Part shown: piece by piece, positions 2,445 to 54,479 of the stretch
Numbering within the stretch: position 1 is the first letter of the stretch
Layout: every line of letters starts with the position of its first letter
Source: Candidatus Nomurabacteria bacterium
GTDB lineage: Bacteria; Patescibacteriota; Minisyncoccia; Phycocordibacterales; Phycocordibacteraceae
DNA length: 62,529 nt
Assembly (NCBI GenBank): GCA_943353835.1
Contig: CALRBA010000002.1
Coordinates: 1 to 62,529, forward strand
Direction: 5' to 3'
Program-made: the position numbers and the translations under genes
Notes under the pieces: generated by a model
Told to the model about the DNA's origin: nothing
Database searches by the model: none
Seen by the model: only the letters and a program-made list of their open reading frames with translations

Positions 2445-3860
2445 ATGAAGATGACTTTGAAGAATGGGAATATTAAAAGTGCGTCGAAGAGCTTTGTGCG
2501 CATCAGTCTTACCGATAAGCCGAAAGGCACAAAGAAATTTGTAAGACAAAATGGAATAGAAACGCTTGAAATCGGAGCGGGAAAGCCTTCCGAAATGAAT
2601 CTGCGCAAATTCATCATCCTTTGTCGCGCTATCGTGAACACAGCAAAGGCGAATAAGTGTAAGAAAATTGCGATTCAGTTTGACCGCACACTAGAACTTT
2701 TTAAGAATCTTCGCAGTGTCACTCCCGAACATATTTCTCAACTGGCTGCAGAGAACTTTGAGATGGCGAACTTTGACTTCAATCTCTTTAAGACAAAACC
2801 AAAAGAGGGTTGGGATATTGTCGAAGATGTATATATCTATGGGAAATTTTCGTTGGAAGTTGAAGAAGCTGTAAAAAAGGGGCAAGAGATCGGCAAAGCG
2901 GTAAATGCGTGCCGTATACTCGCGAACACACCTGGTGGTGATATGACACCGAGTATACTTGCTAAGGATGCAAAGAATGCCGTCAAGGGTTTACCAGTAA
3001 AAGTAACTACACTCGATAAGAAGCAAATTGGGAAGCTTGGTATGGGCGCGGTACTCGGAGTTGCAAAAGGTTCAACAGAAGAACCAAAATTCATAGTTCT
3101 TGAATACAAAGGCGGGAAAGGGAAGCCCGTAGTGCTTATCGGTAAGGGTGTTACGTTTGACAGTGGCGGACTGAATTTGAAACCTTCAAATTCTATATAC
3201 GAAATGCATATGGATATGTCTGGAGGCGCTTCGGGCATCCACGCGGTCGCGCTTGCCGCGCGACTGAAGCTGAAGCAGTCGGTCGTCGGACTCATTCCGG
3301 CAGTGGAGAATATGCCGAGGAATAATGCGCTCCGCCCCGGCGATGTGCTCACATCGCTCTTGGGCAAAACGATTGAGGTACTTGACACCGATGCCGAGGG
3401 TCGCCTTATTCTCGCTGACGCGCTCACCTATGCGAAGCGATTCAATCCTTCAGTTGTTATTGATATAGCGACGCTGACGGGTGCTGTGATTTCGGCACTC
3501 GGACTCTATGCGAGCGGACTGCTCACGCGCGATGATGCGCTTGCTGAGCAACTCGTGCGTGACGGCGAAATTTCTGGCGACTATGTATGGCGGTTGCCGC
3601 TTTGGGACGAATACGAGCACCGCGTGAAGGGAACCTTCGCTGACCTGAAGAATGTGCCGGGCGGGAGCACCAGCCGATACGGAGGCGCCACAGATGGCGG
3701 TATGTTCCTCTGGCAATTCGCGAAAGAGCTTGGATGCCCGTGGGCTCATCTCGACATAGCATCAAGAATGACTTCTGCCGAGGGCGACGAGCTCGCCAAG
3801 GGTGCGGCGGGGACACCTGTGCGACTCCTCATTCGCTTTATCGAACAAAATGCCGTTTAA
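2445..3860 (+). CDS. pepA: Leucyl aminopeptidase, M17 family
   Basis: Motifs NTPGGDMTP, VTFDSGGLNLKP and DTDAEGRLILADAL are typical of M17 cytosol aminopeptidases. Confidence 0.9.
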   Translation: MKMTLKNGNIKSASKSFVRISLTDKPKGTKKFVRQNGIETLEIGAGKPSEMNLRKFIILCRAIVNTAKANKCKKIAIQFDRTLELFKNLRSVTPEHISQLAAENFEMANFDFNLFKTKPKEGWDIVEDVYIYGKFSLEVEEAVKKGQEIGKAVNACRILANTPGGDMTPSILAKDAKNAVKGLPVKVTTLDKKQIGKLGMGAVLGVAKGSTEEPKFIVLEYKGGKGKPVVLIGKGVTFDSGGLNLKPSNSIYEMHMDMSGGASGIHAVALAARLKLKQSVVGLIPAVENMPRNNALRPGDVLTSLLGKTIEVLDTDAEGRLILADALTYAKRFNPSVVIDIATLTGAVISALGLYASGLLTRDDALAEQLVRDGEISGDYVWRLPLWDEYEHRVKGTFADLKNVPGGSTSRYGGATDGGMFLWQFAKELGCPWAHLDIASRMTSAEGDELAKGAAGTPVRLLIRFIEQNAV

Positions 3861-4572
3861 CATAAAAACAGATTCATACGAAGGCCCGTTTGAGCTCCTG
3901 CTTGACCTTATAGAGAAGCGTAAGCTCTTGGTGAACGACCTGGCTCTTTCCAATATCACAGAGGACTTCATTCAACATGTACGCGCACAATCAGCTTTTC
4001 CTGTTGAAGAGACCGCGAACTTTATTCAAATCGCGGCGACACTTCTTCTTATAAAATCAAAATCGCTAATTCCAGATATTGCGTTAACCGATGAAGAAAC
4101 TGCCGACGTTGAAGACCTGAAACGCAGATTGGAAGCATATGAAAAAGTGCGCGAGGCATCGCGTGAACTCTCGCGTATTTTCGGCAGAACAATGCTGTTG
4201 CCGGCCGGAGAGCGTGTTCCTGAAGTTTCATTCGCGCCGTCACACGACCTGTCTCCAGGCGCGCTCGCTGAAGCGCTCGCGCGCGTACTCTCCGCGCGCG
4301 AGGTGGTTGAAGAGCTCCCCACTGCGAGCGTGAAGCCTCTCGTAACAATTGAAGAAATGATGGACAGGCTCGCGAAGCGCGTTCAGAGCGCAATGACGCT
4401 CTCGTTCAACGAATTTTCCGGAACAACGAAGGAAAAAATAGAAATCATCGTATCTTTTCTAGCTCTTCTTGAGCTCGTGAAGCAGGGCGCTGTTGCCGCC
4501 GAACAATTTGGTACCTATGGCGACATTCGCATCAGCCACACTGCTCATTCCTCCGTCCCGCGGTACGGATAA
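3850..4572 (+). CDS. scpA: Segregation and condensation protein A (kleisin)
   Basis: The N-terminus MPFNIKTDSYEGPFELLLDLIEKRKL is typical of ScpA. I chose the internal ATG at 3850, which overlaps the pepA stop by 11 nt, rather than the ORF-track start at 3802. Confidence 0.85.
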   Translation: MPFNIKTDSYEGPFELLLDLIEKRKLLVNDLALSNITEDFIQHVRAQSAFPVEETANFIQIAATLLLIKSKSLIPDIALTDEETADVEDLKRRLEAYEKVREASRELSRIFGRTMLLPAGERVPEVSFAPSHDLSPGALAEALARVLSAREVVEELPTASVKPLVTIEEMMDRLAKRVQSAMTLSFNEFSGTTKEKIEIIVSFLALLELVKQGAVAAEQFGTYGDIRISHTAHSSVPRYG

Positions 4573-9809: not shown

Positions 9810-11143
9810 ACTCTGTTGTCACACGATTCGCTCCATCACCTACCGGACTTCTACATGCCGGCAATTATCGAACGGCAGTATTCGCGTATCTCTTTGCAAA
9901 ACATTCCGAAGGCAAGTTTATTGTACGCATAGAGGATACTGACGCGGCTCGGTCCAAACCGGAATATGAAGCGAACATAATTGATGCACTTACTTGGCTT
10001 CGTTTGCCTGCTGACGAACAATATCGCCAGAGTGAACACAGGCCTAGACACAGAGAATTGCTTGAAAAGCTTATCACTGACGGTATGGCATATATTTCAA
10101 AAGAAATTCCGAAGAATCCTGGTGACAGAGAGAAGGTAATCCGTTTCAAGAACCCGGGAGGTGCAATAACGTTCACCGATGTCATCCGCGGAGATATCAC
10201 AACTGATATCGGCGATCTTGGAGATTTCATCATCGCTCGGTCTCTTGATGAGCCTGTCTTTCATTTTGCGGTTGCAGTAGATGATTCTGACGAGGGTGTG
10301 ACGCACGTTATCCGAGGCGCGGACCACATATCCAACACCGCTCGACAAATGCTTATTCAGCGTGCTCTCGGTTTTCCGACTCCACTGTACGCCCATCTGC
10401 CTCTCATCATGGACAGTAATCATAAAAAGCTCGGTAAGCGTAGTGGCGCGAAGGCGATAACGGAATACCGCGATGAGGGAATTCTGCCGGAGGCGATGCT
10501 TAATTATCTAGCATTTCTCGGCTGGAATCCCGGCGATGTTCGTGAATATTTGTCACGCGAAGAACTTGTTCAGGCATTTGATATATCGCGCGTACAGAAG
10601 GGGAGCGCAATCTTTGACGAGGTTAAACTTTTTTCGGTAAATCAACATTGGATGCGAAAACTTTCTGATGACGATTTTATTACAATGTCCGACCTTGGGA
10701 AACTTGCGTTAAGGTCGGACATTGTTTTGAAAGTTGTTCCTCTACTGAAGGAGCGTGCGAAGACTTTTAAAGAGGCGCGTGAGATGCTTACCGGCGAATT
10801 GTCATGCTTCTTCAATAAGCCGGAACTTGATAAAAACCTGCTTCTCGCGAAGGAACCGCCAGAACGTCCAGGCATAGCAATATCGGCCTTAAAAGGCCTT
10901 TTAGAGCCCATAAAAGCTCTCCCAAAGGGTGTATCGGCCGAAGTAGTCAAGACCATAATTATGCCGTTTTCTGATGCCGAAGAGGCGAAAGGGAAGGGTG
11001 GCAGGGGCGCTGTGTTATGGCCGTTACGATATGCGCTCTCCGGAGTTGAACGCTCTCCGGACCCGTTCACAATCATTTCAATTCTAGGTACTGATGAATC
11101 AATTTCGCGCATAAGTAAGGCTATTGCTATACTTGAAGGATGA
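9806..11143 (+). CDS. gltX: Glutamyl-tRNA synthetase
   Basis: RFAPSPTGLLHAGNYRTA (HIGH-type) and KLGKRSG (KMSKS variant). 445 aa. Confidence 0.9.
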   Translation: MNSVVTRFAPSPTGLLHAGNYRTAVFAYLFAKHSEGKFIVRIEDTDAARSKPEYEANIIDALTWLRLPADEQYRQSEHRPRHRELLEKLITDGMAYISKEIPKNPGDREKVIRFKNPGGAITFTDVIRGDITTDIGDLGDFIIARSLDEPVFHFAVAVDDSDEGVTHVIRGADHISNTARQMLIQRALGFPTPLYAHLPLIMDSNHKKLGKRSGAKAITEYRDEGILPEAMLNYLAFLGWNPGDVREYLSREELVQAFDISRVQKGSAIFDEVKLFSVNQHWMRKLSDDDFITMSDLGKLALRSDIVLKVVPLLKERAKTFKEAREMLTGELSCFFNKPELDKNLLLAKEPPERPGIAISALKGLLEPIKALPKGVSAEVVKTIIMPFSDAEEAKGKGGRGAVLWPLRYALSGVERSPDPFTIISILGTDESISRISKAIAILEG

Positions 11144-46722: not shown

Positions 46723-46962
46723 TTAGTGTTTAGGATATTGTGCTCGCAGATACGCGATTATGTCGCCCGATTCGTACATTTCCACACCGTGTTCGCTGTC
46801 CACGAGATACGGCACTTGCCTTTTCCCTCCGCGCGCGACAAGCTCTGTCGCCACAGCGTCATCTGCGATATTCTTCTCTTCAAATTCAATTCCCAATTCC
46901 TTCCCCGTGTTCAGTACTTTCGCGCAAAACGGACATCCTGTTTTTACATAGAGTGTAAGCAT
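46723..46962 (-). CDS. Glutaredoxin-like protein
   Basis: 79 aa. CPFC active site at the N-terminus. Thioredoxin-fold length. Confidence 0.75.
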   Translation of the reverse strand: MLTLYVKTGCPFCAKVLNTGKELGIEFEEKNIADDAVATELVARGGKRQVPYLVDSEHGVEMYESGDIIAYLRAQYPKH

Positions 46963-47041
46963 TTGATAAGTATAGCAGATACGCTAGAATGCATTCACGC
47001 ATCTCCGCCAGCTGGCGGATCGCGACGCGCGTTAGTGACAT

Positions 47042-47113
47042 TCCGCGGTAGCTCAGTGGTAGAGCGGCTCCCTGTTAAGGAGTTGGTCGTAGGTTCGAAT
47101 CCTACCCGCGGAG
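47042..47113 (+). tRNA. tRNA-Asn (anticodon GUU), no encoded CCA
   Basis: Manual cloverleaf: acceptor TCCGCGG/CCGCGGA, D stem GCTC/GAGC, anticodon loop CTGTTAA, T arm GTAGG-TTCGAAT-CCTAC. Confidence 0.9.
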
Positions 47114-48703
47114 CAAGACAGGATTTTTAGAGTAGAGTTCGTCCAAATCACTAGCATTTAAGCCGTTACTTAGCGGTTCGAACCTATCGTTGATTTCTCG
47201 TGCAACCGGCGCGGCTGTTTCGAGGCGTTTAAGAGAGTCCGGTAGCAAAACACTGAATACTTTGTTGAAAAGCTGGAGGTTCGAACCAAGAGCATAAAGA
47301 ATCTCTTTTTTCTTCGCCAGCGTACCATTCTTAAATTCTGAAGCTGCTCGCTCTGCAAAGGCGAGATGTTTCTCGACATCATCAAGCCAACTATCAAAGC
47401 GACCATGCGCATCGTTCAGTAATTCCTCGGCCCGCGCCTTCTCTTGCGTCAGAATTCCTTTCCGGTGCGTAAACTCCTCTGCAGTAATCTCACCGGCGGC
47501 TCGTAGATCAATCAGGTTATCGAGCTTCTTGGCTATCTGGTCGTACTCCTTTCGCTGTCCTGTCATAATCTTCTCCCGAGTCTCTGCCTCTCCCTTATTC
47601 TGCTCTCGCAAGACGCTCATTGCCCATGTACGGAAAGAAGGCGGGATTTCAATTCGTCCGAGAACCGTGGCTATCTGCTTCTCCAACGTTGCTTCTTCAA
47701 TAACTTTCTGGCTACATTTAACTTCCTTCCGCTTCGTGCAGTGATAGTAAATATAATTATGAACCTTTCCATTCTTCTGCCGCTTCAGCTTATGTTCAGC
47801 CGTAATCATCGCTCCGCACTCTCCACAGAAGATTGGGCCTCGCAGAGCAAAATCATATTCCTTTGGACGCGTCGATACCTTACCTAAAAGAAACTGGATC
47901 TTGTCGAACTCTTCGCGCGTAATCATTGGCTCATGATTTCCGTGATGCAAAGTTCCTTTCGGATATTCAAAATCGCCATAATAAAAAGGGTCACTAAAAA
48001 TCCTATATACCGTGGCTCGTGCTATTTTATTTCCCTGCCGTGTCGTCAGTCCCCATTTTCCACTAGCAACCTCCCATACCTTTTGAGGGTTGTATTGACC
48101 CGTCAGCATCAAGTCCCACATCTTCCGCACTAACGGGAATCGCTCTGCATCTACAATTATTTCTTTCTCGCCTTTGAACTTGAGAGGGTTGGACATGTAG
48201 CCGATGGTCGCGTAGGTCGGATACCATCCTCGCTCCGCTTTTGCTCTCAAACCACGCTTTGTATCAACGCTTAAATCACGAATGAACTGATTGGCCATGC
48301 CAAGCTCAACGGCCATCATAAGAACATTGTCAGTCGAGTAGTAAGCCCTTCCGAAGGTCTGAATTTGCCTCAAGACGCCCTGTTGGAGCATCCAGCTTAT
48401 CTGGCCACCGTCGATAGGGTTGCGGGCCAAACGGTTGAGTTTCCAGCATAGAATCCCATCCGCTTCTCCTGCCTGAACCCGCATCAGCATCTGATTAAAG
48501 ACTGGACGACCTGGACCCTTGGCGGACTGCGATTCCGAAAATCTATCCACCACCTCTAAACCCATTTCGTCAGCAATCTTCTGAAGCTCTGCAATTTGTG
48601 AATCAATAGAGGCCATCTGCCGGTCTTCACTTTCCGAGGACTTTCGGGCGTACAGGAAATATCGCACCTTCTCTCGTCCTGCATCCATCTTCATATACCT
48701 CAT
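47102..48703 (-). CDS. Large serine recombinase (integrase)
   Basis: Resolvase catalytic domain (YARKSSESEDRQ..., CWKLNRLARN), recombinase domain, zinc ribbon (CGECG...YYHC) and C-terminal coiled coil. 533 aa. Confidence 0.9.
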   Translation of the reverse strand: MRYMKMDAGREKVRYFLYARKSSESEDRQMASIDSQIAELQKIADEMGLEVVDRFSESQSAKGPGRPVFNQMLMRVQAGEADGILCWKLNRLARNPIDGGQISWMLQQGVLRQIQTFGRAYYSTDNVLMMAVELGMANQFIRDLSVDTKRGLRAKAERGWYPTYATIGYMSNPLKFKGEKEIIVDAERFPLVRKMWDLMLTGQYNPQKVWEVASGKWGLTTRQGNKIARATVYRIFSDPFYYGDFEYPKGTLHHGNHEPMITREEFDKIQFLLGKVSTRPKEYDFALRGPIFCGECGAMITAEHKLKRQKNGKVHNYIYYHCTKRKEVKCSQKVIEEATLEKQIATVLGRIEIPPSFRTWAMSVLREQNKGEAETREKIMTGQRKEYDQIAKKLDNLIDLRAAGEITAEEFTHRKGILTQEKARAEELLNDAHGRFDSWLDDVEKHLAFAERAASEFKNGTLAKKKEILYALGSNLQLFNKVFSVLLPDSLKRLETAAPVAREINDRFEPLSNGLNASDLDELYSKNPVLLRG

Positions 48704-48888
48704 ATGGTACCGCTAATTTGCCTCCCAGAGACGAGTTTCCCCTTCCACCCCTCAGGCGCATATACCGCTTCCACAAGCCTTACAATCGTCGTCCCGAGCC
48801 TCTCTGCCTCCTTCCTATCCAGATCCACGCCGTACTCAGCTCTATAGAGAGCTATAAGTTCATCGAGGCGAGAATCCGAGATCTTCAT
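48700..48888 (-). CDS. Small hypothetical protein (62 aa), translationally coupled to the recombinase
   Basis: ATGA overlap with the recombinase start. Helical. Could be an accessory or directionality factor, but this is speculative. Confidence 0.45.
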   Translation of the reverse strand: MKISDSRLDELIALYRAEYGVDLDRKEAERLGTTIVRLVEAVYAPEGWKGKLVSGRQISGTI

Positions 48889-48912
48889 ACTCCTAACTTT
48901 TCTCCTGCTTCC

Positions 48913-50277
48913 TTAGAAAGGAATGTCCTCGGGACGAATATCCATCTCCGTCTTGTCTACATCTGTAGTAACGTTCACAATGTTCACGTCATTCACTTCG
49001 CCTTTGATATCAAAGTCTGTGATTCCAAGCCGTTCTTTCCAGAGATCAATACGTTCTTGATTTCTCGAAATTGACAAGCAAAATCCACGACTAGTTCGAT
49101 CTGCTTTCAAATGTAGCCTAGCGCGAAGAATCCAGCCCACTTTCTTTGCGCTTACTGACTCACCGCTCTCCCAATCCAGATTCATCTCTTTCGCAATCTC
49201 TTTAACTAGAACCCCATCGATCTCCGTTTTCTCGTGAATACGTAAGAGCGCGATAATAGCTTCAGACTCCCAAGAAAGTGCGCGATCGGCGATTAGTTCT
49301 TTGTGATAACGCCTGACATGCTCTAAAAGCGTCTCCTGAATCTCTGGGTCTGGCATAACAGCCAGTAAGGGAATGATTATTTGTTGGAGACGTGGGTGAA
49401 GTCCCTCAATTGGCTTGTCCTCGAAAACTAGTGGGTTCCGATAGTTACGAAAGCGCCACGTGAGGAGTTTATTCCGGAGTTCCCGTGCCTCCTCCCAAAA
49501 GCCATCATCTAGACGTATAGGGATGTCAGCACGTAATTTCACCCGCCCCATATCTTCTATGAGAAAGCGGCTCTCTAAGGCTTGGTCATCAAAATTATGC
49601 CTCGTAGCAACGATTTTGGGGCCATATACGTCATAGCTCTTCACGTTGAACGCTCCTTTACCGTTACCTTCTGAACGCAAAACCGCTGTGCCTCTCTGGT
49701 ATCCCGTATTGAGTATCTTTACAAGATCGTTTTTTGCATCGCTGAAGTTCAGATCGGCCTCATCGAGAATTAACGTACCATGCACTTGGTCCAGGATGCG
49801 GAATATCGGGGATGTCGTCGTCGCGCCTGCGGTAAAGATTGGTCGATAGCAGATGGAACCAATCACTTGGAGGAATCGACTTTTGCCACTGCCATAATCA
49901 CCTCGCGCACGTAGATAGGGAAGTTCATTAAGGCGATCATAAATCCATGACAAAAATACATACTGGGTAGCAATTCGTTCAAATGCGGGAGAAATATCTA
50001 CCCGCTTATGAATGAAGGCTTGGATTTCCTCAAGCAATTCTTTGTTCGTGCCATATTCCGCCGCTCGAGAAGGAAAGAGGACTACATTTTTGGCAACTAT
50101 ATCGCTACAAGCATCGAGAGGATAAACCTCTCCGTCTGCTGTGCTGATTGATGGGGCGTGCTGTGCTTTTCCATTCTGATAAATGTAGAAACCAGTTTCC
50201 TTGAGTATTGGGTCGTAGATGGTTTCGGCGATTAAGTCGGTTTGAACAACTGAAGCCTTATGGTTTTTCTTTTTCAT
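48913..50277 (-). CDS. P-loop NTPase, phage/plasmid replication-associated type (DUF3631/primase-C-like)
   Basis: Walker A GDYGSGKS, Walker B LILDEADL, and a C-terminal winged-helix-like segment. 454 aa. Confidence 0.6.
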   Translation of the reverse strand: MKKKNHKASVVQTDLIAETIYDPILKETGFYIYQNGKAQHAPSISTADGEVYPLDACSDIVAKNVVLFPSRAAEYGTNKELLEEIQAFIHKRVDISPAFERIATQYVFLSWIYDRLNELPYLRARGDYGSGKSRFLQVIGSICYRPIFTAGATTTSPIFRILDQVHGTLILDEADLNFSDAKNDLVKILNTGYQRGTAVLRSEGNGKGAFNVKSYDVYGPKIVATRHNFDDQALESRFLIEDMGRVKLRADIPIRLDDGFWEEARELRNKLLTWRFRNYRNPLVFEDKPIEGLHPRLQQIIIPLLAVMPDPEIQETLLEHVRRYHKELIADRALSWESEAIIALLRIHEKTEIDGVLVKEIAKEMNLDWESGESVSAKKVGWILRARLHLKADRTSRGFCLSISRNQERIDLWKERLGITDFDIKGEVNDVNIVNVTTDVDKTEMDIRPEDIPF

Positions 50278-50279
50278 AT

Positions 50280-50335
50280 ATCCATCGCGTGTCCTGTGGT
50301 CGCTCTAGGTGGCGATGGATTCACTTCACCTAGAG
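50280..50335 (-). promoter_or_regulatory. Interleaved 9-bp inverted repeats in the 5' leader of the P-loop gene
   Basis: ATCCATCGC (50280-88) pairs with GCGATGGAT (50312-20). CTCTAGGTG (50303-11) pairs with CACCTAGAG (50327-35). The topology allows a pseudoknot or two alternative hairpins. Confidence 0.5.
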
Positions 50336-50395
50336 CTGCCGCAAGAAACAAGAGTTAGTGATTAAAGTGGACTTACTTATGCACCCCGCGTCCCC

Positions 50396-50454
50396 ATAAA
50401 AAACGAGACGGCAATCGTTGGAAAGATTTCTCTTTCGCTACGATTGCCGTCTCG
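50396..50454 (-). terminator. Intrinsic terminator after the 95-aa gene
   Basis: Perfect 16-bp inverted repeat ACGAGACGGCAATCGT/ACGATTGCCGTCTCGT with a 21-nt loop, followed on the minus strand by UUUUAU. Confidence 0.6.
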
Positions 50455-50546
50455 TGTCGAGGTTCGGGCGGAACTTATCGGGGGTGTTGTTTAAACTATA
50501 TCACTCACGAATATCAAATCAAGATTTCATCCACATGTGGAGAGCC

Positions 50547-50834
50547 CTAGGGCGTACTTTCAGAGAGGTTCGCTAGGCTCATAATCGGTGGCGGCAGGAT
50601 GGGCGTTCCACGAGGGCCACTAATCTCCGTGGCTTGTACTGCCTTGCCCCACGACCGGTCAAATAGCTCCTTAGCGGCCGCTACATCCCCATTCTTGGCC
50701 TTAATGATCAGTGCCTGTGCAATGGGCTGAATTTCCCTCATTGTCATCTCGGCGAACAGCTTTCGCGCCTCCTCGGAGCTCTTAGCTGCGAAGCCCTTTT
50801 TGCGCCCTGCACCTGGTCTGTAGCCGCCTTTCAT
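50547..50834 (-). CDS. Small basic protein with N-terminal GGYRPGAGRKKG motif (phage-type DNA-binding?)
   Basis: 95 aa. The N-terminal Gly/Arg/Lys motif is common in small phage DNA-binding or terminase-small-like proteins. It has its own promoter and terminator. Confidence 0.5.
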   Translation of the reverse strand: MKGGYRPGAGRKKGFAAKSSEEARKLFAEMTMREIQPIAQALIIKAKNGDVAAAKELFDRSWGKAVQATEISGPRGTPILPPPIMSLANLSESTP

Positions 50835-50933
50835 GATGGATAAGAATCAATGGATTCAATGCCTTTATTATACGCTTTCTCAGCCAAAATGCTCGATTTC
50901 TGTGGATGAAAGTGGGGTGCAGCGCACTGGTTA

Positions 50934-51107
50934 CCCGCCACAACGTCATTCTCCTGTGCTATGGTTTGACACAGAAGAGCCTAAACCTTCTTGCGTTGGC
51001 AAGGGCATGGTTCGAAATCGCAGAACACAGAAACCCCGTCATCAGGGGCGTGTTCTGCGTTATAGGGGGAAACTCCTATAGGGCCGCAAGGCCCACCTGG
51101 TGGCGGG
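50934..51107 (+). ncRNA. Candidate structured RNA domain (five hairpins closed by a long-range helix), family unknown
   Basis: CCCGCCAC (50934-41) pairs with GTGGCGGG (51100-07). Inside this helix: CTCCTGTG/CACAGaaGAG; CTTGC-GTTG-GCAAG; CGCAGAACAC...GTGTTCTGCG with an inner CCCC-gtcatca-GGGG; TATAGGGG-GAAA-CTCCTATA; GGGCC-GCAA-GGCCC. The GNRA loops read correctly only on the + strand. Confidence 0.5.
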
Positions 51108-51157
51108 ATTTGTGTTCCTATACAAAACCTCCTCAGGCTTTATTTAATAGATTGAAA

Positions 51158-52213
51158 ATGAATATGAAAAAAATTCTACCAGTGCTTGTCATCCCGTTTT
51201 TCATGTTGCCGTCAATATCGTTTGCTGCGGCTCTCACCCCGCAACAGTCGTCTAGCCTCATTGCTGTTGTTCAGTCATCCCCAGGTACACCGGCAAGTGC
51301 TTTCGTTTCTCTCATAACTGCTTTCTCGAACATAACGACAGTTCAGGCCGCTAGTCTCATCACAGTTATTCAAGCAGCTCCTAGTGTACCCGCGAAAGCT
51401 TTTGTAGATCTTCTAACTTCTTTTACTATCGACGCAGCAACACAAGTAACGAGTCAGGCGATGACTCCAACAACACAAAATCCGACAGTGCCGGCAATAG
51501 CTGTGCAGTCAACGCAGTCAGCAACGCCAGCAGCTCCAGCAACTCCTTCTTCGTCAACAACTCCAGCAGTACCAGCAACACCAGCGGTACCCGCAAACCC
51601 ACAACCTACAACCCAAGCACCAACAAGCCCAACGACCCTTCTGCAAGATAGTTTTGATTCCTACACAGATGGAACCTTATTGGGTCAAGGCGGATGGCAG
51701 AACTATTCCAGCGGACAAAATTTTATCGTGCGAAGTGCCACTACTTCTGCGGGTACAGTCGTTGTGTACAATAACTCTATTGGAGACAGTGTTATCTCAA
51801 AAGACGGTGTGTACTTACCAGATGGCAAACAAGCGGTGTACATCAAAACAGAAAACAGATTAAATTGGGGTGCATATGGAGATGGAAATGCACAGGTACG
51901 TATATCGCAAGGAAAATCCTTTGCTTCTGATATTTTTGCTTCTGTTTCTTTCAAGAAAGACGGGAACGTTGCTTATTACGACTCCAGTTACATGTATCAA
52001 AACTTTGCGACTTACAACGACAATGAATGGACTCTCCTAGAAATCCAATGGCGTTCGAGTGATAAGAAAGTGAGATATAGAGTCAATGAAGGTGTATGGA
52101 CAGACTGGTTGATGTTCAAAGGAGCATCTGCTTTCACTGGCTTTAACAATCTTGGATTCGACTTCTACCTACCAAGTGGTTCAGGCGGAGTTTACTACGA
52201 TAATCTTCACTAA
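51158..52213 (+). CDS. Secreted protein: signal peptide, two ~30-aa repeats, Pro/Thr/Ala linker, C-terminal beta-rich (LamG/lectin-like) domain
   Basis: MNMKKILPVLVIPFFMLPSISFAAA signal peptide. Repeats SSLIAVVQSSPGTPASAFVSLITAFS and ASLITVIQAAPSVPAKAFVDLLTSFT. PT-rich linker. The upstream part of the 435-aa ORF is discounted. Confidence 0.7.
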   Translation: MNMKKILPVLVIPFFMLPSISFAAALTPQQSSSLIAVVQSSPGTPASAFVSLITAFSNITTVQAASLITVIQAAPSVPAKAFVDLLTSFTIDAATQVTSQAMTPTTQNPTVPAIAVQSTQSATPAAPATPSSSTTPAVPATPAVPANPQPTTQAPTSPTTLLQDSFDSYTDGTLLGQGGWQNYSSGQNFIVRSATTSAGTVVVYNNSIGDSVISKDGVYLPDGKQAVYIKTENRLNWGAYGDGNAQVRISQGKSFASDIFASVSFKKDGNVAYYDSSYMYQNFATYNDNEWTLLEIQWRSSDKKVRYRVNEGVWTDWLMFKGASAFTGFNNLGFDFYLPSGSGGVYYDNLH

Positions 52214-52295
52214 CTCATCTTCGTCGAAACGTGATAGCCATTCGAGGCGCTAGATTGTCTTTAAATCTATCTCGGGAGTAGAATGCGGGTGAAGT

Positions 52296-53450
52296 ATGAA
52301 AGCGATTAAAGAGCTACAAGAAGATATCGAGAAATTGAATGTGGAAAACCTAGCCTTTCATAAAAGTTATGAAAATCGAACTGGTCACGGCTGGGCGCAA
52401 TGGAGTGAATATCAAAAGTGGATCAATTTCAATGTCGGAACGCTAGACAGTATTCAGACTTTAGTTAAGGAGCACCGTTATCGAGACTGCTATATTCTGA
52501 TTCGCCCCGTTCTGGAAGCATACCTACTTATTAAATTATCAATGCTCGGTAATACGATCTTTTTTGACCTGCTTCCAAAAAAGAACGGGAAGGTAATGGA
52601 ATCTAAAGAGGAGCTACTCGCAAGGGCAAAGAACGATCCTGAATTAAAAAAAGCGGACGTAGTGAAAATGAAATTGATTAAAGATGAGAGTGGTTATAGA
52701 GTTCGGATTTTATTTCGCGAGAAACCAGTTGGGGGCTCGCGCGAATTCGTCCCACGCCATTATTTCTTTGCTAAAGAATATGACCCTGATACTCAGTATT
52801 TGAGCGATTTAATTCTGAAAAATCAATGGCACGGAATAAAATATCCTACAAAAGACCACAAGAAAAAGAATCGTGATATTCAGAGAAACTTTCTTCGCAT
52901 AGGTGCTCTGCTCGATTTCTTTAGCGTAAAAAAGTTTGCATCTCCAAGAGAGCGCCAAGCAATTTTTGTACACTATAGTTATCTGAGCAAATTTACTCAT
53001 TCAACTGTTAGAGCATACGACTCGTTGGCTAAAAACCATAATGGATCGAACCCCTCAAATCTAGAATCCTTGTTTAAGAAAAATACCTTGCATGAGTTAC
53101 TCATCCTGCTTTATTGTGCCTTCCTTTCTCTTTACTTTTTAAAACTTCAACTTGACTATTTTGGGAGAGAATCAGATCTGGTCATTAGGGCGAAACGCAG
53201 GAAAGAGATTAGAGAACTTACAAAAGCAATAGAAGATAAATACTCATTCTTTTGGTTTATTTACAATAAGCCACATACGTTCGATCTTTGGCAGTACCAA
53301 TCCAAAAGAGAGATATCGCAGAACGCCAATAAAAAAATTCCTATTCCTTATTACGTAGATCCATATCATCGTCTAGAGGGCTTGATGTCGACCTGGAGCA
53401 ACCCTATCTTAGGCAGACACGAGCCACCCCCAATCCTTAGAGCTGAATGA
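52296..53450 (+). CDS. Hypothetical cytoplasmic helical protein (384 aa), possible Abi-like/DUF5677-like
   Basis: Lys-rich and AT-rich. Contains IRPVLEAYLLIKL and YSYLSKFTHST, reminiscent of the R..xE and Y..LS...H helices of AbiV-type proteins. Assignment from memory only. Confidence 0.6.
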   Translation: MKAIKELQEDIEKLNVENLAFHKSYENRTGHGWAQWSEYQKWINFNVGTLDSIQTLVKEHRYRDCYILIRPVLEAYLLIKLSMLGNTIFFDLLPKKNGKVMESKEELLARAKNDPELKKADVVKMKLIKDESGYRVRILFREKPVGGSREFVPRHYFFAKEYDPDTQYLSDLILKNQWHGIKYPTKDHKKKNRDIQRNFLRIGALLDFFSVKKFASPRERQAIFVHYSYLSKFTHSTVRAYDSLAKNHNGSNPSNLESLFKKNTLHELLILLYCAFLSLYFLKLQLDYFGRESDLVIRAKRRKEIRELTKAIEDKYSFFWFIYNKPHTFDLWQYQSKREISQNANKKIPIPYYVDPYHRLEGLMSTWSNPILGRHEPPPILRAE

Positions 53451-53632
53451 GTAAGGTCTGATAATTACATTTAAGAAAAAATTTGTGAGAGCGTATATCC
53501 ATCGGTTCGACAACATCGGCTGACTGGCATGGTGGGGTCTGCCAATTAGTCTGAGTCGCTCAGAAATAGCTGTGAACATGTGTACATAATGAACATCATT
53601 CCTGCAGTAAAAGGTCGACTTCTCTACGCAAC

Positions 53633-53665
53633 AGAGGTTCGAACATCCTCTATCCAGCGGAGCCA
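53633..53665 (+). other. Degenerate tRNA 3'-half-like fragment (candidate attR or old att remnant)
   Basis: AGAGGTTCGAACATCCTCTATCCAGCGGAGCCA shares AGGTTCGAA and GCGGAGC with the T arm and acceptor of tRNA-Asn (GTAGGTTCGAATCCTACCCGCGGAGCA). No complete tRNA can be folded here. Confidence 0.4.
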
Positions 53666-53666
53666 G

Positions 53667-54479
53667 TTAGTAGGTGTTAAACCAAAATCCAAAACCGTTC
53701 CACAATGAGACGTATTTTCCTATTTTCGTGCGTCTGATGGAGAGTGTCAGAGCTTCTGTGCGAAGCGACTTGCCGATACGACCCGCGAGCGAGCGCATAT
53801 ATGTTCCAGAACCGCATATTACTTTCAAACGTATAACAGTAAAATTTCTTTCATGTGAGGATTCAAAAAGCTGTTCCCATTTTTCTAGAATAGAATCTAC
53901 GCGAAAGTCTTCTCCCATACGTTTAGACGGCTCGTCAGTTCTCTGAACATAATCAAGGAGTCTAGATATCCTTCCGGCGAGTTCTTTGCAGGAAATCATG
54001 TATAAATTTATAAGCTTTATTTTGAAAATGCGCTCAAAATGCTTTGGTATTTCAATATCTTTTAATTTTCCTTCAAGTGCATAAAGAAAAAGCGGTTTGC
54101 CGTTTACTGTTTTTGACGAAAACTTCGGATACTCGCGCAGATGCTCACCGAGTTCATCACGAAGAGTGTTCACAGTGACTCGTTCGTCTGGAGTAGTAGT
54201 CTGACTAGAATACTCCGGTATGCCGAGTACGTCGCCAGTATCGCTACCGATATCTAGTAATACTTCTATTTCATACTCTTTATCCAGATTTGTATATTCT
54301 CTTTGTCGTTTACACTCATCTCCGAGAAGTATTAGTAATTTGCCGGACGCCATCGGGTCTAGACGGCCCGCATAGCTGGCTGATACATTTTTGTATTCTA
54401 GATTTTTTATTCTCCATGCGTGTATCGCCGACAGTGGCGTCTCGCCGACTTTCTTATCCAATACTACGAATCGTTTCAT
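53667..54479 (-). CDS. truB: tRNA pseudouridine synthase, TruB family
   Basis: GRLDPMASGKLLILLG catalytic Asp motif. 270 aa. Confidence 0.7.
   Translation of the reverse strand: MKRFVVLDKKVGETPLSAIHAWRIKNLEYKNVSASYAGRLDPMASGKLLILLGDECKRQREYTNLDKEYEIEVLLDIGSDTGDVLGIPEYSSQTTTPDERVTVNTLRDELGEHLREYPKFSSKTVNGKPLFLYALEGKLKDIEIPKHFERIFKIKLINLYMISCKELAGRISRLLDYVQRTDEPSKRMGEDFRVDSILEKWEQLFESSHERNFTVIRLKVICGSGTYMRSLAGRIGKSLRTEALTLSIRRTKIGKYVSLWNGFGFWFNTY

Follow-up and report, generated by a model that had tools for sequence, protein, structure and literature searches.

LOOT RNAs are an orphan class of structured RNA, first described in a survey of 224 motifs (Weinberg et al. 2017, PMC5737381), the main text of which does not discuss them. 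Rfam 14 lists LOOT as a 'metagenomic-based' family (PMC7779021), and the CaCoFold paper credits it with about 43 base pairs in six helices (PMC7657543). Beyond these Rfam and CaCoFold mentions, our literature searches found nothing on the function of LOOT, and Rfam files the family under the type 'Gene; sRNA'. Here, we analyzed a LOOT locus in a 62,529-nucleotide (nt) stretch of DNA from a Candidatus Nomurabacteria bacterium (contig CALRBA010000002.1; hereafter the window). A sequence-only reading of the window had described a cluster of hairpins at 50934-51107, in the middle of a genomic island, and had been unable to place it in any known family. However, an Rfam 15 scan of the whole window identified it as LOOT (RF03000). 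The covariance model matches positions 50978-51094 of the plus strand over its full length (model positions 1-121 of 121), with a score of 73.6 bits compared with a gathering score of 46.4 (E = 5.9e-12). A permissive Rfam scan of the island gave the same match again and, apart from LOOT, nothing noteworthy. We regard it as practically certain that the hairpin cluster is a gene for a LOOT RNA.

The RNA class is already catalogued, and the feature as such is no discovery. The core of the window copy does not differ from that of RF03000: the P1 domain, a long hairpin (P2), a GAAA-capped hairpin (P3) and a second tetraloop hairpin (P4). P1 is present with its conserved CCUAAAC ... GGCAUGG internal loop around a variable hairpin, and the three hairpins follow in order, each covarying and with 80-99% of alignment cells paired. 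The apical stem that Rfam draws on the long hairpin found no support, which corrects the model and is no argument against membership. Beyond the 121-position model, we add a conserved 5′ leader with a promoter position, and a 3′ tail that pairs with the hairpin apex in a 10-bp pseudoknot and is followed by a U-tract. The fold is thereby corrected and extended, with a probable contact between the GAAA loop and a receptor. For a class described only from metagenomes, the analysis also supplies a host clade, the Patescibacteria, a genetic home in tRNA-integrating large-serine-recombinase elements with terminase-like genes, and a class of downstream partners, exported or membrane proteins.

Homologues and nested helices

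Relatives were gathered from viral, genome and metagenome collections by exact-word patterns of conserved LOOT blocks. An exact match to CCTAAACC and GGGCATGG was demanded, in the metagenome set together with GGAAAC; the pseudoknot, P2, P4 and the flanks were part of no search pattern. The two-block pattern (CCTAAACC-N6-24-GGGCATGG) returned mostly chance matches, the real ones being about 20 of 120 genome loci and two to three viral loci, and about 111 of the 120 metagenome matches to the three-block pattern were real. Rfam confirmed LOOT in 13 of the 14 candidate-phylum loci tested. From the window and 13 homologues we built a covariance model, R1, which extends the Rfam match by 20 nt on its 5′ side and 25 nt on its 3′ side and holds no pseudoknot pairs. 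R1 found about 130 full-length matches (60-141 bits) that run from the 5′ leader to the 3′ tail over all 163 model positions, and it matched the window at 50958-51119 with 134.4 bits. Covariation was counted on alignment A2, in which 102 R1 matches (101 distinct rows) were aligned to the model. A MAFFT alignment, A1, was structurally inconsistent in the hairpins and was used solely to seed R1.

The region 50934-51107 folds at -81.5 kcal/mol (z = -5.7), and in the shuffling control that the sequence-only reading had itself proposed, none of 200 dinucleotide shuffles folded as well. The minus strand folds equally well (z = -6.1); therefore, energy alone assigns no strand. On A2, the nested helices together with the pseudoknot are paired in 90.9% of cells, compared with 66.6% after shuffling and 34-41% in slid-partner controls. 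The earlier view of a compact, multi-helical RNA domain is thus supported, in the form of four hairpins, P1 and the pseudoknot; P1 and the pseudoknot (51035-44/51098-107) had both escaped that reading.

All of these helices lie on the plus strand. The P1 domain (50978-51012) was placed by the Rfam consensus alignment, and its outer pairs covary. It comprises a helix (50978-81/51009-12), the internal loop CCUAAA (50980-85)/CAUGG (51006-10) and the pairs 50986-87/51004-05, and it encloses a variable hairpin (50990-94/50999-51003) with the loop GUUG, which had been listed as CTTGC-GTTG-GCAAG at 50990-51003. P2 (51019-51059) has a lower stem, CGCAGAACAC/GTGTTCTGCG (51019-28/51050-59), which serves as stem 1 of the pseudoknot and encloses an A-rich 5′ internal loop (51029-33) and the apex. 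Among the 101 sequences, all 10 pairs of this stem have changed on both sides; by mutual information, they belong to the highest-ranking pairs. P3 (51061-51080) is the 8-bp hairpin TATAGGGG-GAAA-CTCCTATA, with its stem at 51061-68/51073-80 and its loop at 51069-72. All eight of its pairs covary, with 98.5% of cells paired; the GAAA loop occurs in 100 of 101 sequences, an invariance that stems partly from the search pattern, and is also upper-case in the Rfam consensus. P4 (51081-51094) is the 5-bp hairpin GGGCC-GCAA-GGCCC, with its stem at 51081-85/51090-94; both sides have changed at every pair, and pairing is seen in about 99% of cells. Its loop is GCAA in 35 sequences, GAAA in 23, UUCG in 19 and GUAA in 9. 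Because the loop varies among stable tetraloops, P4 is probably a stability element that makes no specific contact. The inner CCCC-N7-GGGG hairpin (51034-37/51045-48) is present in the window as letters; as a helix, it is paired in 61.7% of cells across the 101 homologues, compared with 60.3% after shuffling.

The internal loop of P1 resembles a known tertiary motif. The classical 11-nt GAAA-tetraloop receptor reads C1C2U3A4A5G6/U7A8U9G10G11, and its recognition is carried by C2:G10, the A4-A5 platform and A8 (PMC2275092, PMC2615604). The LOOT loop CCUAAA/CAUGG is identical to it at 9 of 11 positions: C2:G10, U3, the A4-A5 platform, A8 and U9 are kept, alongside the invariant GAAA loop of P3, whereas the G6:U7 wobble is replaced by A:C. 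From this resemblance, we propose that the GAAA loop of P3 probably docks into the receptor-like loop of P1.

The 3′ pseudoknot and the ends of the RNA

The tail at 51098-51107 (UGGUGGCGGG, plus strand) lies outside the Rfam model and pairs with the apex of P2 at 51035-51044 (CCCGUCAUCA, plus strand). The tail consensus, YGGYGGCGGG and then YUUUKUG, is kept in every homologue. In the 101 sequences, all 10 pairs of the apex-tail helix have changed on both sides, and pairing holds in 95.4% of cells; one pair, for example, is AU in 31, CG in 31 and GC in 31, and another is AU in 52 and GC in 47. Three divergent homologues (L166, L334 and L346; L numbers denote individual loci) have wholly different apex and tail sequences that are still complementary. 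In an unbiased mutual-information scan, a pseudoknot pair ranked second overall, and the top 24 pairs all fell within the nested-plus-pseudoknot structure. RNAalifold, run on A2 with no constraint, predicted the helix as well; A2 came from a model without pseudoknot pairs. The tail 8-mer is fully complementary to its own apex in 93 of 102 loci, whereas foreign apexes offer a mean of 4.85 pairs. The mean duplex energy is -21.3 kcal/mol compared with -12.5 kcal/mol with foreign tails, and the window duplex reaches 12 bp and -24.5 kcal/mol. The competing apical and tail hairpins average -5.1 and -2.5 kcal/mol, respectively. Judging from this covariation, the RNA almost surely adopts an H-type pseudoknot in which the lower stem of P2 is stem 1, the apex-tail helix is stem 2, and the long third loop holds P3 and P4. 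The tail and the pseudoknot are new relative to the Rfam model, and the model should gain about 25 nt at its 3′ end.

The pseudoknot also assigns the strand. Two of its positions are U.G in 74-84 of the 101 sequences, and the other strand would have A.C mismatches there; therefore, the RNA strand is the plus strand. The sequence-only reading, which had placed an RNA-level structure on that strand, was right in this respect, and the GAAA loop is kept. We considered the apical hairpin as a switch partner of the pseudoknot and rejected it, as it did no better than composition predicts; the mutual-information scan held no trace of an alternative closing helix formed by the 5′ leader and the 3′ trailer. 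No conserved, mutually exclusive pairing for the tail or the apex was found beyond composition in the 101-sequence alignment with flank controls.

Upstream of the RNA, an extended -10-like element, TGcTATGGT (TGCTATGGT), lies at 50957-50965 on the plus strand; it matches the consensus and its position is conserved. Among 99 homologues, the best TANNNT hexamer stands 25-38 nt 5′ of CCTAAAC in most loci, mostly preceding a conserved ACAAYUKAAUA. The predicted transcription start is at about 50970-50973, and LOOT is probably transcribed from its own promoter. The predicted transcript would run from about 50972 to 51116 on the plus strand (about 145 nt), its end being set at a U-rich tract (AUUUGUGUU, 51108-51116, plus strand) that lies directly 3′ of the pseudoknot and is likely the 3′ end or an attenuation point. 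At least five T among the 8 nt after the tail were counted in 94 of 101 homologues (consensus Y-UUU-(U/G)-U-G), and the 8 nt before the 5′ strand of stem 2 are A-rich, with a mean of 4.8 A.

These ends resemble a Rho-independent (intrinsic) terminator in the A-rich tract, the GC-rich helix and the U-tract directly after it, with stem 2 ending in GGG/CCC. However, the two strands are 53 nt apart with three other helices between them, which makes the structure a pseudoknot and no simple hairpin. We consider the chances evenly balanced that stem 2 of the pseudoknot acts as a terminator or attenuator.

The sequence-only reading had proposed a different architecture, in which an 8-bp helix, CCCGCCAC/GTGGCGGG (50934-41/51100-07), closes five hairpins within a leader of about 280 nt that starts from a -10 box at 50866-71. 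The complement is present as letters and is a perfect 8-mer match in the window, which by chance would occur in about 0.3% of cases within about 170 nt, before correction for selectable helices, and the minimum-free-energy fold uses it. In the homologues, however, the best complement of the tail in its own 100-nt upstream flank averages 6.26 consecutive pairs, compared with 6.34 in unrelated flanks. The 3′ strand is conserved, but its partner is the P2 apex, with which it covaries and forms the stronger duplex given above, and the 5′ strand has no counterpart elsewhere. The -10-like hexamer of the homologues lies about 25-38 nt 5′ of CCUAAAC, which corresponds to 50957-65 in the window and not to 50866; the 5′ strand of the outer helix would then lie 5′ of the transcription start. 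With the -10 box at 50957-65, CCCGCCAC and most of the fifth hairpin therefore fall in what would be untranscribed promoter DNA. Four of the five hairpins (the lower long stem, the GAAA hairpin, the second tetraloop hairpin and the GUUG hairpin) are kept with compensatory changes, whereas the fifth, a 'stem with a bulge' at 50954-74, overlaps the conserved -10 position and is no conserved RNA helix. We consider this architecture extremely unlikely.

Farther upstream, about a quarter of the LOOT loci (e.g., L232, L237, L162, L294 and L272) carry a DnaA-box-like motif, TGT[TG]G[AG]TAA, at a fixed position, -67 to -90 nt. A second promoter-like pair, CTTCGCAA-N17-TAGAAT, comes next, and then TAAGCTAG-ATGG; the window counterpart of the motif is TGTGGATGA at 50901-09. 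The motif may represent an operator or tandem promoter that belongs to a single subfamily of the elements.

Carrier element and downstream genes

LOOT resides in a 6.55-kb mobile element that is integrated at a tRNA gene. The element spans 47108-53663 (6,556 bp) and has the core GCGGAGC at both ends: the left copy (47108-14) is the 3′ end of tRNA-Asn (47042-47114), and the right copy (53657-63) belongs to the right end of the element, which holds a degenerate copy of the 3′ part of the tRNA. A Logan contig from a separate run (ERR3719144_646115, L369) is 6,556 nt long and corresponds exactly to 47108-53663 with 100% identity, which suggests that the element is polymorphic or excised in the ERR3719144 sample. 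On the minus strand, a large serine recombinase (integrase; 47102-48688) adjoins tRNA-Asn; it matches Pfam Resolvase, Recombinase and Zn_ribbon_recom and PHROG 95 (integrase, 3.3e-63). Also on the minus strand within the element are a 62-aa open reading frame (ORF), a 454-aa protein and a 95-aa DUF5681-like protein. The 454-aa protein matched no Pfam, PHROGs, PADLOC or NCBIfam family, and its candidacy as a diverged terminase large subunit (TerL) was rejected as it showed no similarity. In the central divergent region of the element, LOOT stands first in the rightward unit, which also contains a DUF5677-like protein on the plus strand. The genes for the 454-aa and 95-aa proteins are separated by an interval that holds a perfect 16-bp inverted repeat (ACGAGACGGCAATCGT ... 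ACGATTGCCGTCTCGT, 50403-50455) with a 21-nt loop. The repeat gave a meaningless sub-threshold mir-4743 match, and it may serve the leftward operon as a terminator, operator or processing site.

The same context recurs elsewhere. The window recombinase falls into one BLAST cluster with the recombinases near LOOT, and members of this cluster occur in 51 of 125 LOOT loci, in 49 cases upstream on the opposite strand and often adjacent; where at least 3 kb is available on both flanks, 21 of 24 loci have it. We found the order tRNA(+), recombinase(-), LOOT(+) in at least 13 loci, involving at least seven tRNA species. Other frequent neighbours are TerL (PHROG 38, 6.5e-75), a TerS-like helix-turn-helix protein and a ParB-nuclease/DNA-methylase. 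No attachment-site (att) direct repeats of at least 10 nt delimit the elements in the other loci, which is consistent with the short cores used by serine recombinases. In seven loci (e.g., L121, L294, L305 and L281), a reverse transcriptase (cluster 6; Pfam RVT_1, 7.5e-23) lies at most 5 kb from LOOT and carries an IGxxxSQ motif, which we take to be typical of diversity-generating retroelements.

As for the hosts, 20 species genomes with LOOT were recovered, and the labels of 17 of them name Patescibacteria lineages (Parcubacteria, Paceibacterota, Falkowbacteria, Taylorbacteria, Minisyncoccales, Saccharibacteria, Gottesman-, Curtiss- and Beckwithbacteria, and Microgenomates). The other three labels are an unclassified 'bacterium' (L121), a Bathyarchaeota archaeon (L161) and a Pseudomonadales metagenome-assembled genome (L184). 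The last two carry full LOOT RNAs, with a neighbouring serine recombinase in L184, and their labels may reflect mis-binning of mobile elements. Two loci hold two full LOOT copies each: in L121 they are convergent and about 500 nt apart (3602-3766(+) and 4270-4430(-)), and in L305 they lie 6.7 kb apart (3573-3736(+) and 10403-10549(+)), which suggests tandem or nested elements. Four weak R1 matches of 24-32 bits (L305 10689-10818(+), L297 9118-9247(-), L121 382-512(+) and L361 63-231(-)), two of them located 140 nt 3′ of a full LOOT, may be degenerate or divergent LOOT-like copies.

The surroundings of LOOT raise the question of a role at the DNA level, as a serine-recombinase site, an integron-like cassette-insertion site, a packaging site or an origin, with the RNA structure being secondary. 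Such a role would fit the divergent recombinase gene upstream, which is often directly adjacent, the hypervariable cargo directly after LOOT (90%-identical elements diverge 14 nt past the model end) and the DnaA-box-like motif in about a quarter of loci. However, the strand-specific U.G at two pseudoknot positions comes with extensive compensatory change, the GAAA tetraloop and the 11-nt-receptor-like loop are an RNA tertiary motif, a promoter-like box and a U-tract stand at the ends, and the att site of the window is at the tRNA, 3.8 kb away. We consider a DNA-level function very unlikely. Of the options named by the sequence-only reading, the DNA-level site is thus disfavoured, and both the noncoding RNA (ncRNA) and the leader stay.

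Downstream of LOOT in the window, 41 nt after the U-tract, a called gene on the plus strand (51158-52213) encodes a 351-aa protein with a signal-peptide-like N-terminus. No Pfam, PHROG or PADLOC family matched it. Judged by eye, its motif SFDSYTDGTLLGQGGW is similar to the cluster 4 proteins that lie 3′ of LOOT in 13 other loci. The gene has no obvious Shine-Dalgarno sequence, and CCTCCTCAGG at 51128-51137 places an anti-Shine-Dalgarno-like CCUCC between the LOOT U-tract and the start codon. A mechanical ORF (50906-52213) crosses LOOT in frame with this secreted-protein gene, and the open frame would allow the region to be translated. However, gene callers begin the protein at 51158, the start of a typical signal peptide. 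The substitutions in the homologues follow paired RNA columns and the frame is not kept, with frequent insertions and deletions in loops; the probability that the region is translated, which the sequence-only reading had named as a refutation of its own proposal, is vanishingly small. An annotation by longest ORF would wrongly absorb the LOOT gene, and the same artefact was seen in several homologous loci.

Across the homologues, the nearest downstream ORF is co-oriented with LOOT in 89 of 104 loci (86%). The distance between the model end and the longest possible start has a median of 35 nt; some loci, among them L350, leave no room in between for a separate promoter. Of 91 such downstream genes, 68 (75%) encode a hydrophobic N-terminus (signal peptide or membrane anchor), compared with 20% of the remaining ORFs at these loci (Fisher p = 1e-24). 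The encoded proteins fall into dozens of unrelated families. Two elements are 90.6% identical over 3.3 kb upstream plus LOOT, and their similarity is gone 14 nt past the model end, where the cargo differs. In most other locus pairs, nucleotide conservation is confined to LOOT and 60-90 nt of promoter. In about 14% of loci, there is no co-oriented gene after LOOT, as in L323, where a convergent TerL gene comes directly next; therefore, LOOT can stand alone.

These data bear on the main rival to a self-contained RNA, namely a purely cis-acting 5′ leader of the envelope-protein gene, whether a riboswitch-like or protein-controlled attenuator, an antiterminator or an mRNA stabiliser; in this case, the short RNA would serve no purpose by itself. 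The co-orientation and short gap, the enrichment for exported and membrane proteins, and a pseudoknot whose 3′ strand adjoins the U-tract, as in transcription-attenuating riboswitches, would all suit such a leader. However, the loci without a co-oriented gene do not, and downstream genes from dozens of unrelated families are atypical for a metabolite riboswitch. Moreover, no conserved antiterminator pairing was found (the apical hairpin is at composition level and the leader and tail gave no mutual-information signal), and nucleotide identity that ends just after LOOT indicates that LOOT is conserved independently of its cargo. We therefore regard a purely cis-acting leader as rather unlikely, although the data suggest a mixture of a stand-alone ncRNA and a cis-regulatory leader.

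Putative mechanism and known systems

Overall, we favor, with somewhat better than even confidence, a model in which LOOT is a self-contained RNA unit whose pseudoknot forms a leaky terminator in front of envelope-protein cargo. LOOT would be transcribed from its own promoter, with the -10-like box at 50957-65, into an RNA of about 145 nt. This RNA would fold into the receptor-like P1 domain and the H-type pseudoknot, with the two tetraloop hairpins held in its long loop and the GAAA of P3 docked on P1. Stem 2, lying between the A-rich tract and the U-tract, would work as an unusual intrinsic terminator. Most transcripts would stop at the U-tract and yield a stable, compact RNA that acts by its shape, and the remaining fraction would read into the variable envelope-protein gene.

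Several points weigh against this model. The transcription start, the 3′ end and termination itself are all inferred from sequence. A consensus terminator scan found none on the plus strand, because 53 nt separate the strands of stem 2. A purely cis-acting leader would account equally well for the tight coupling to downstream genes, and the covariation fits an intramolecular pseudoknot and an intermolecular (dimer) pairing alike. In addition, the invariance of CCTAAACC, GGGCATGG and GGAAAC is partly by construction, and our conclusions apply to the subfamily that these words define.

We also speculate, as a distinctly unlikely alternative, that in the serine-recombinase elements of Patescibacteria, LOOT forms the constant head of an expression module whose cargo is swapped. 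The conserved promoter and the terminator-like pseudoknot would gate transcription into interchangeable envelope-protein genes, and the RNA may work with the recombinase or assemble intermolecularly, in the latter case via the tetraloop/receptor and apex-tail pairings. If true, either would mean that lysogenic-conversion genes of the Candidate Phyla Radiation are under a new kind of RNA control.

The arrangement of LOOT and interchangeable envelope-protein genes is similar to that of prophage morons. As a small structured RNA that heads an operon of a temperate element, LOOT is also comparable to the P4 CI RNA and the P1/P7 c4 RNA, which are phage and satellite immunity RNAs in which loop pairing with a downstream segment of the same transcript is linked to termination. 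However, the LOOT pairing appears as a fixed cis pseudoknot, and the Rfam C4 model had no match at E <= 1 in the island (46900-53800). The integron platform likewise has a recombinase divergent from a conserved promoter-bearing element, followed by swappable cargo. In contrast to the tyrosine IntI, the LOOT recombinase is of the large serine type (Resolvase, Recombinase, Zn_ribbon_recom), and the conserved LOOT element shows RNA-type covariation; no attC-like repeats turned up, and no attC-directed search was made. Finally, the ornate RNAs ROOL and GOLLD (PMC5737381) are, like LOOT, orphan structured RNAs near tRNAs and in prophage-like regions. However, they measure 580-800 nt compared with about 145 nt for LOOT and share no sequence or structure similarity with it, and LOOT is tied to serine recombinases and to Patescibacteria.

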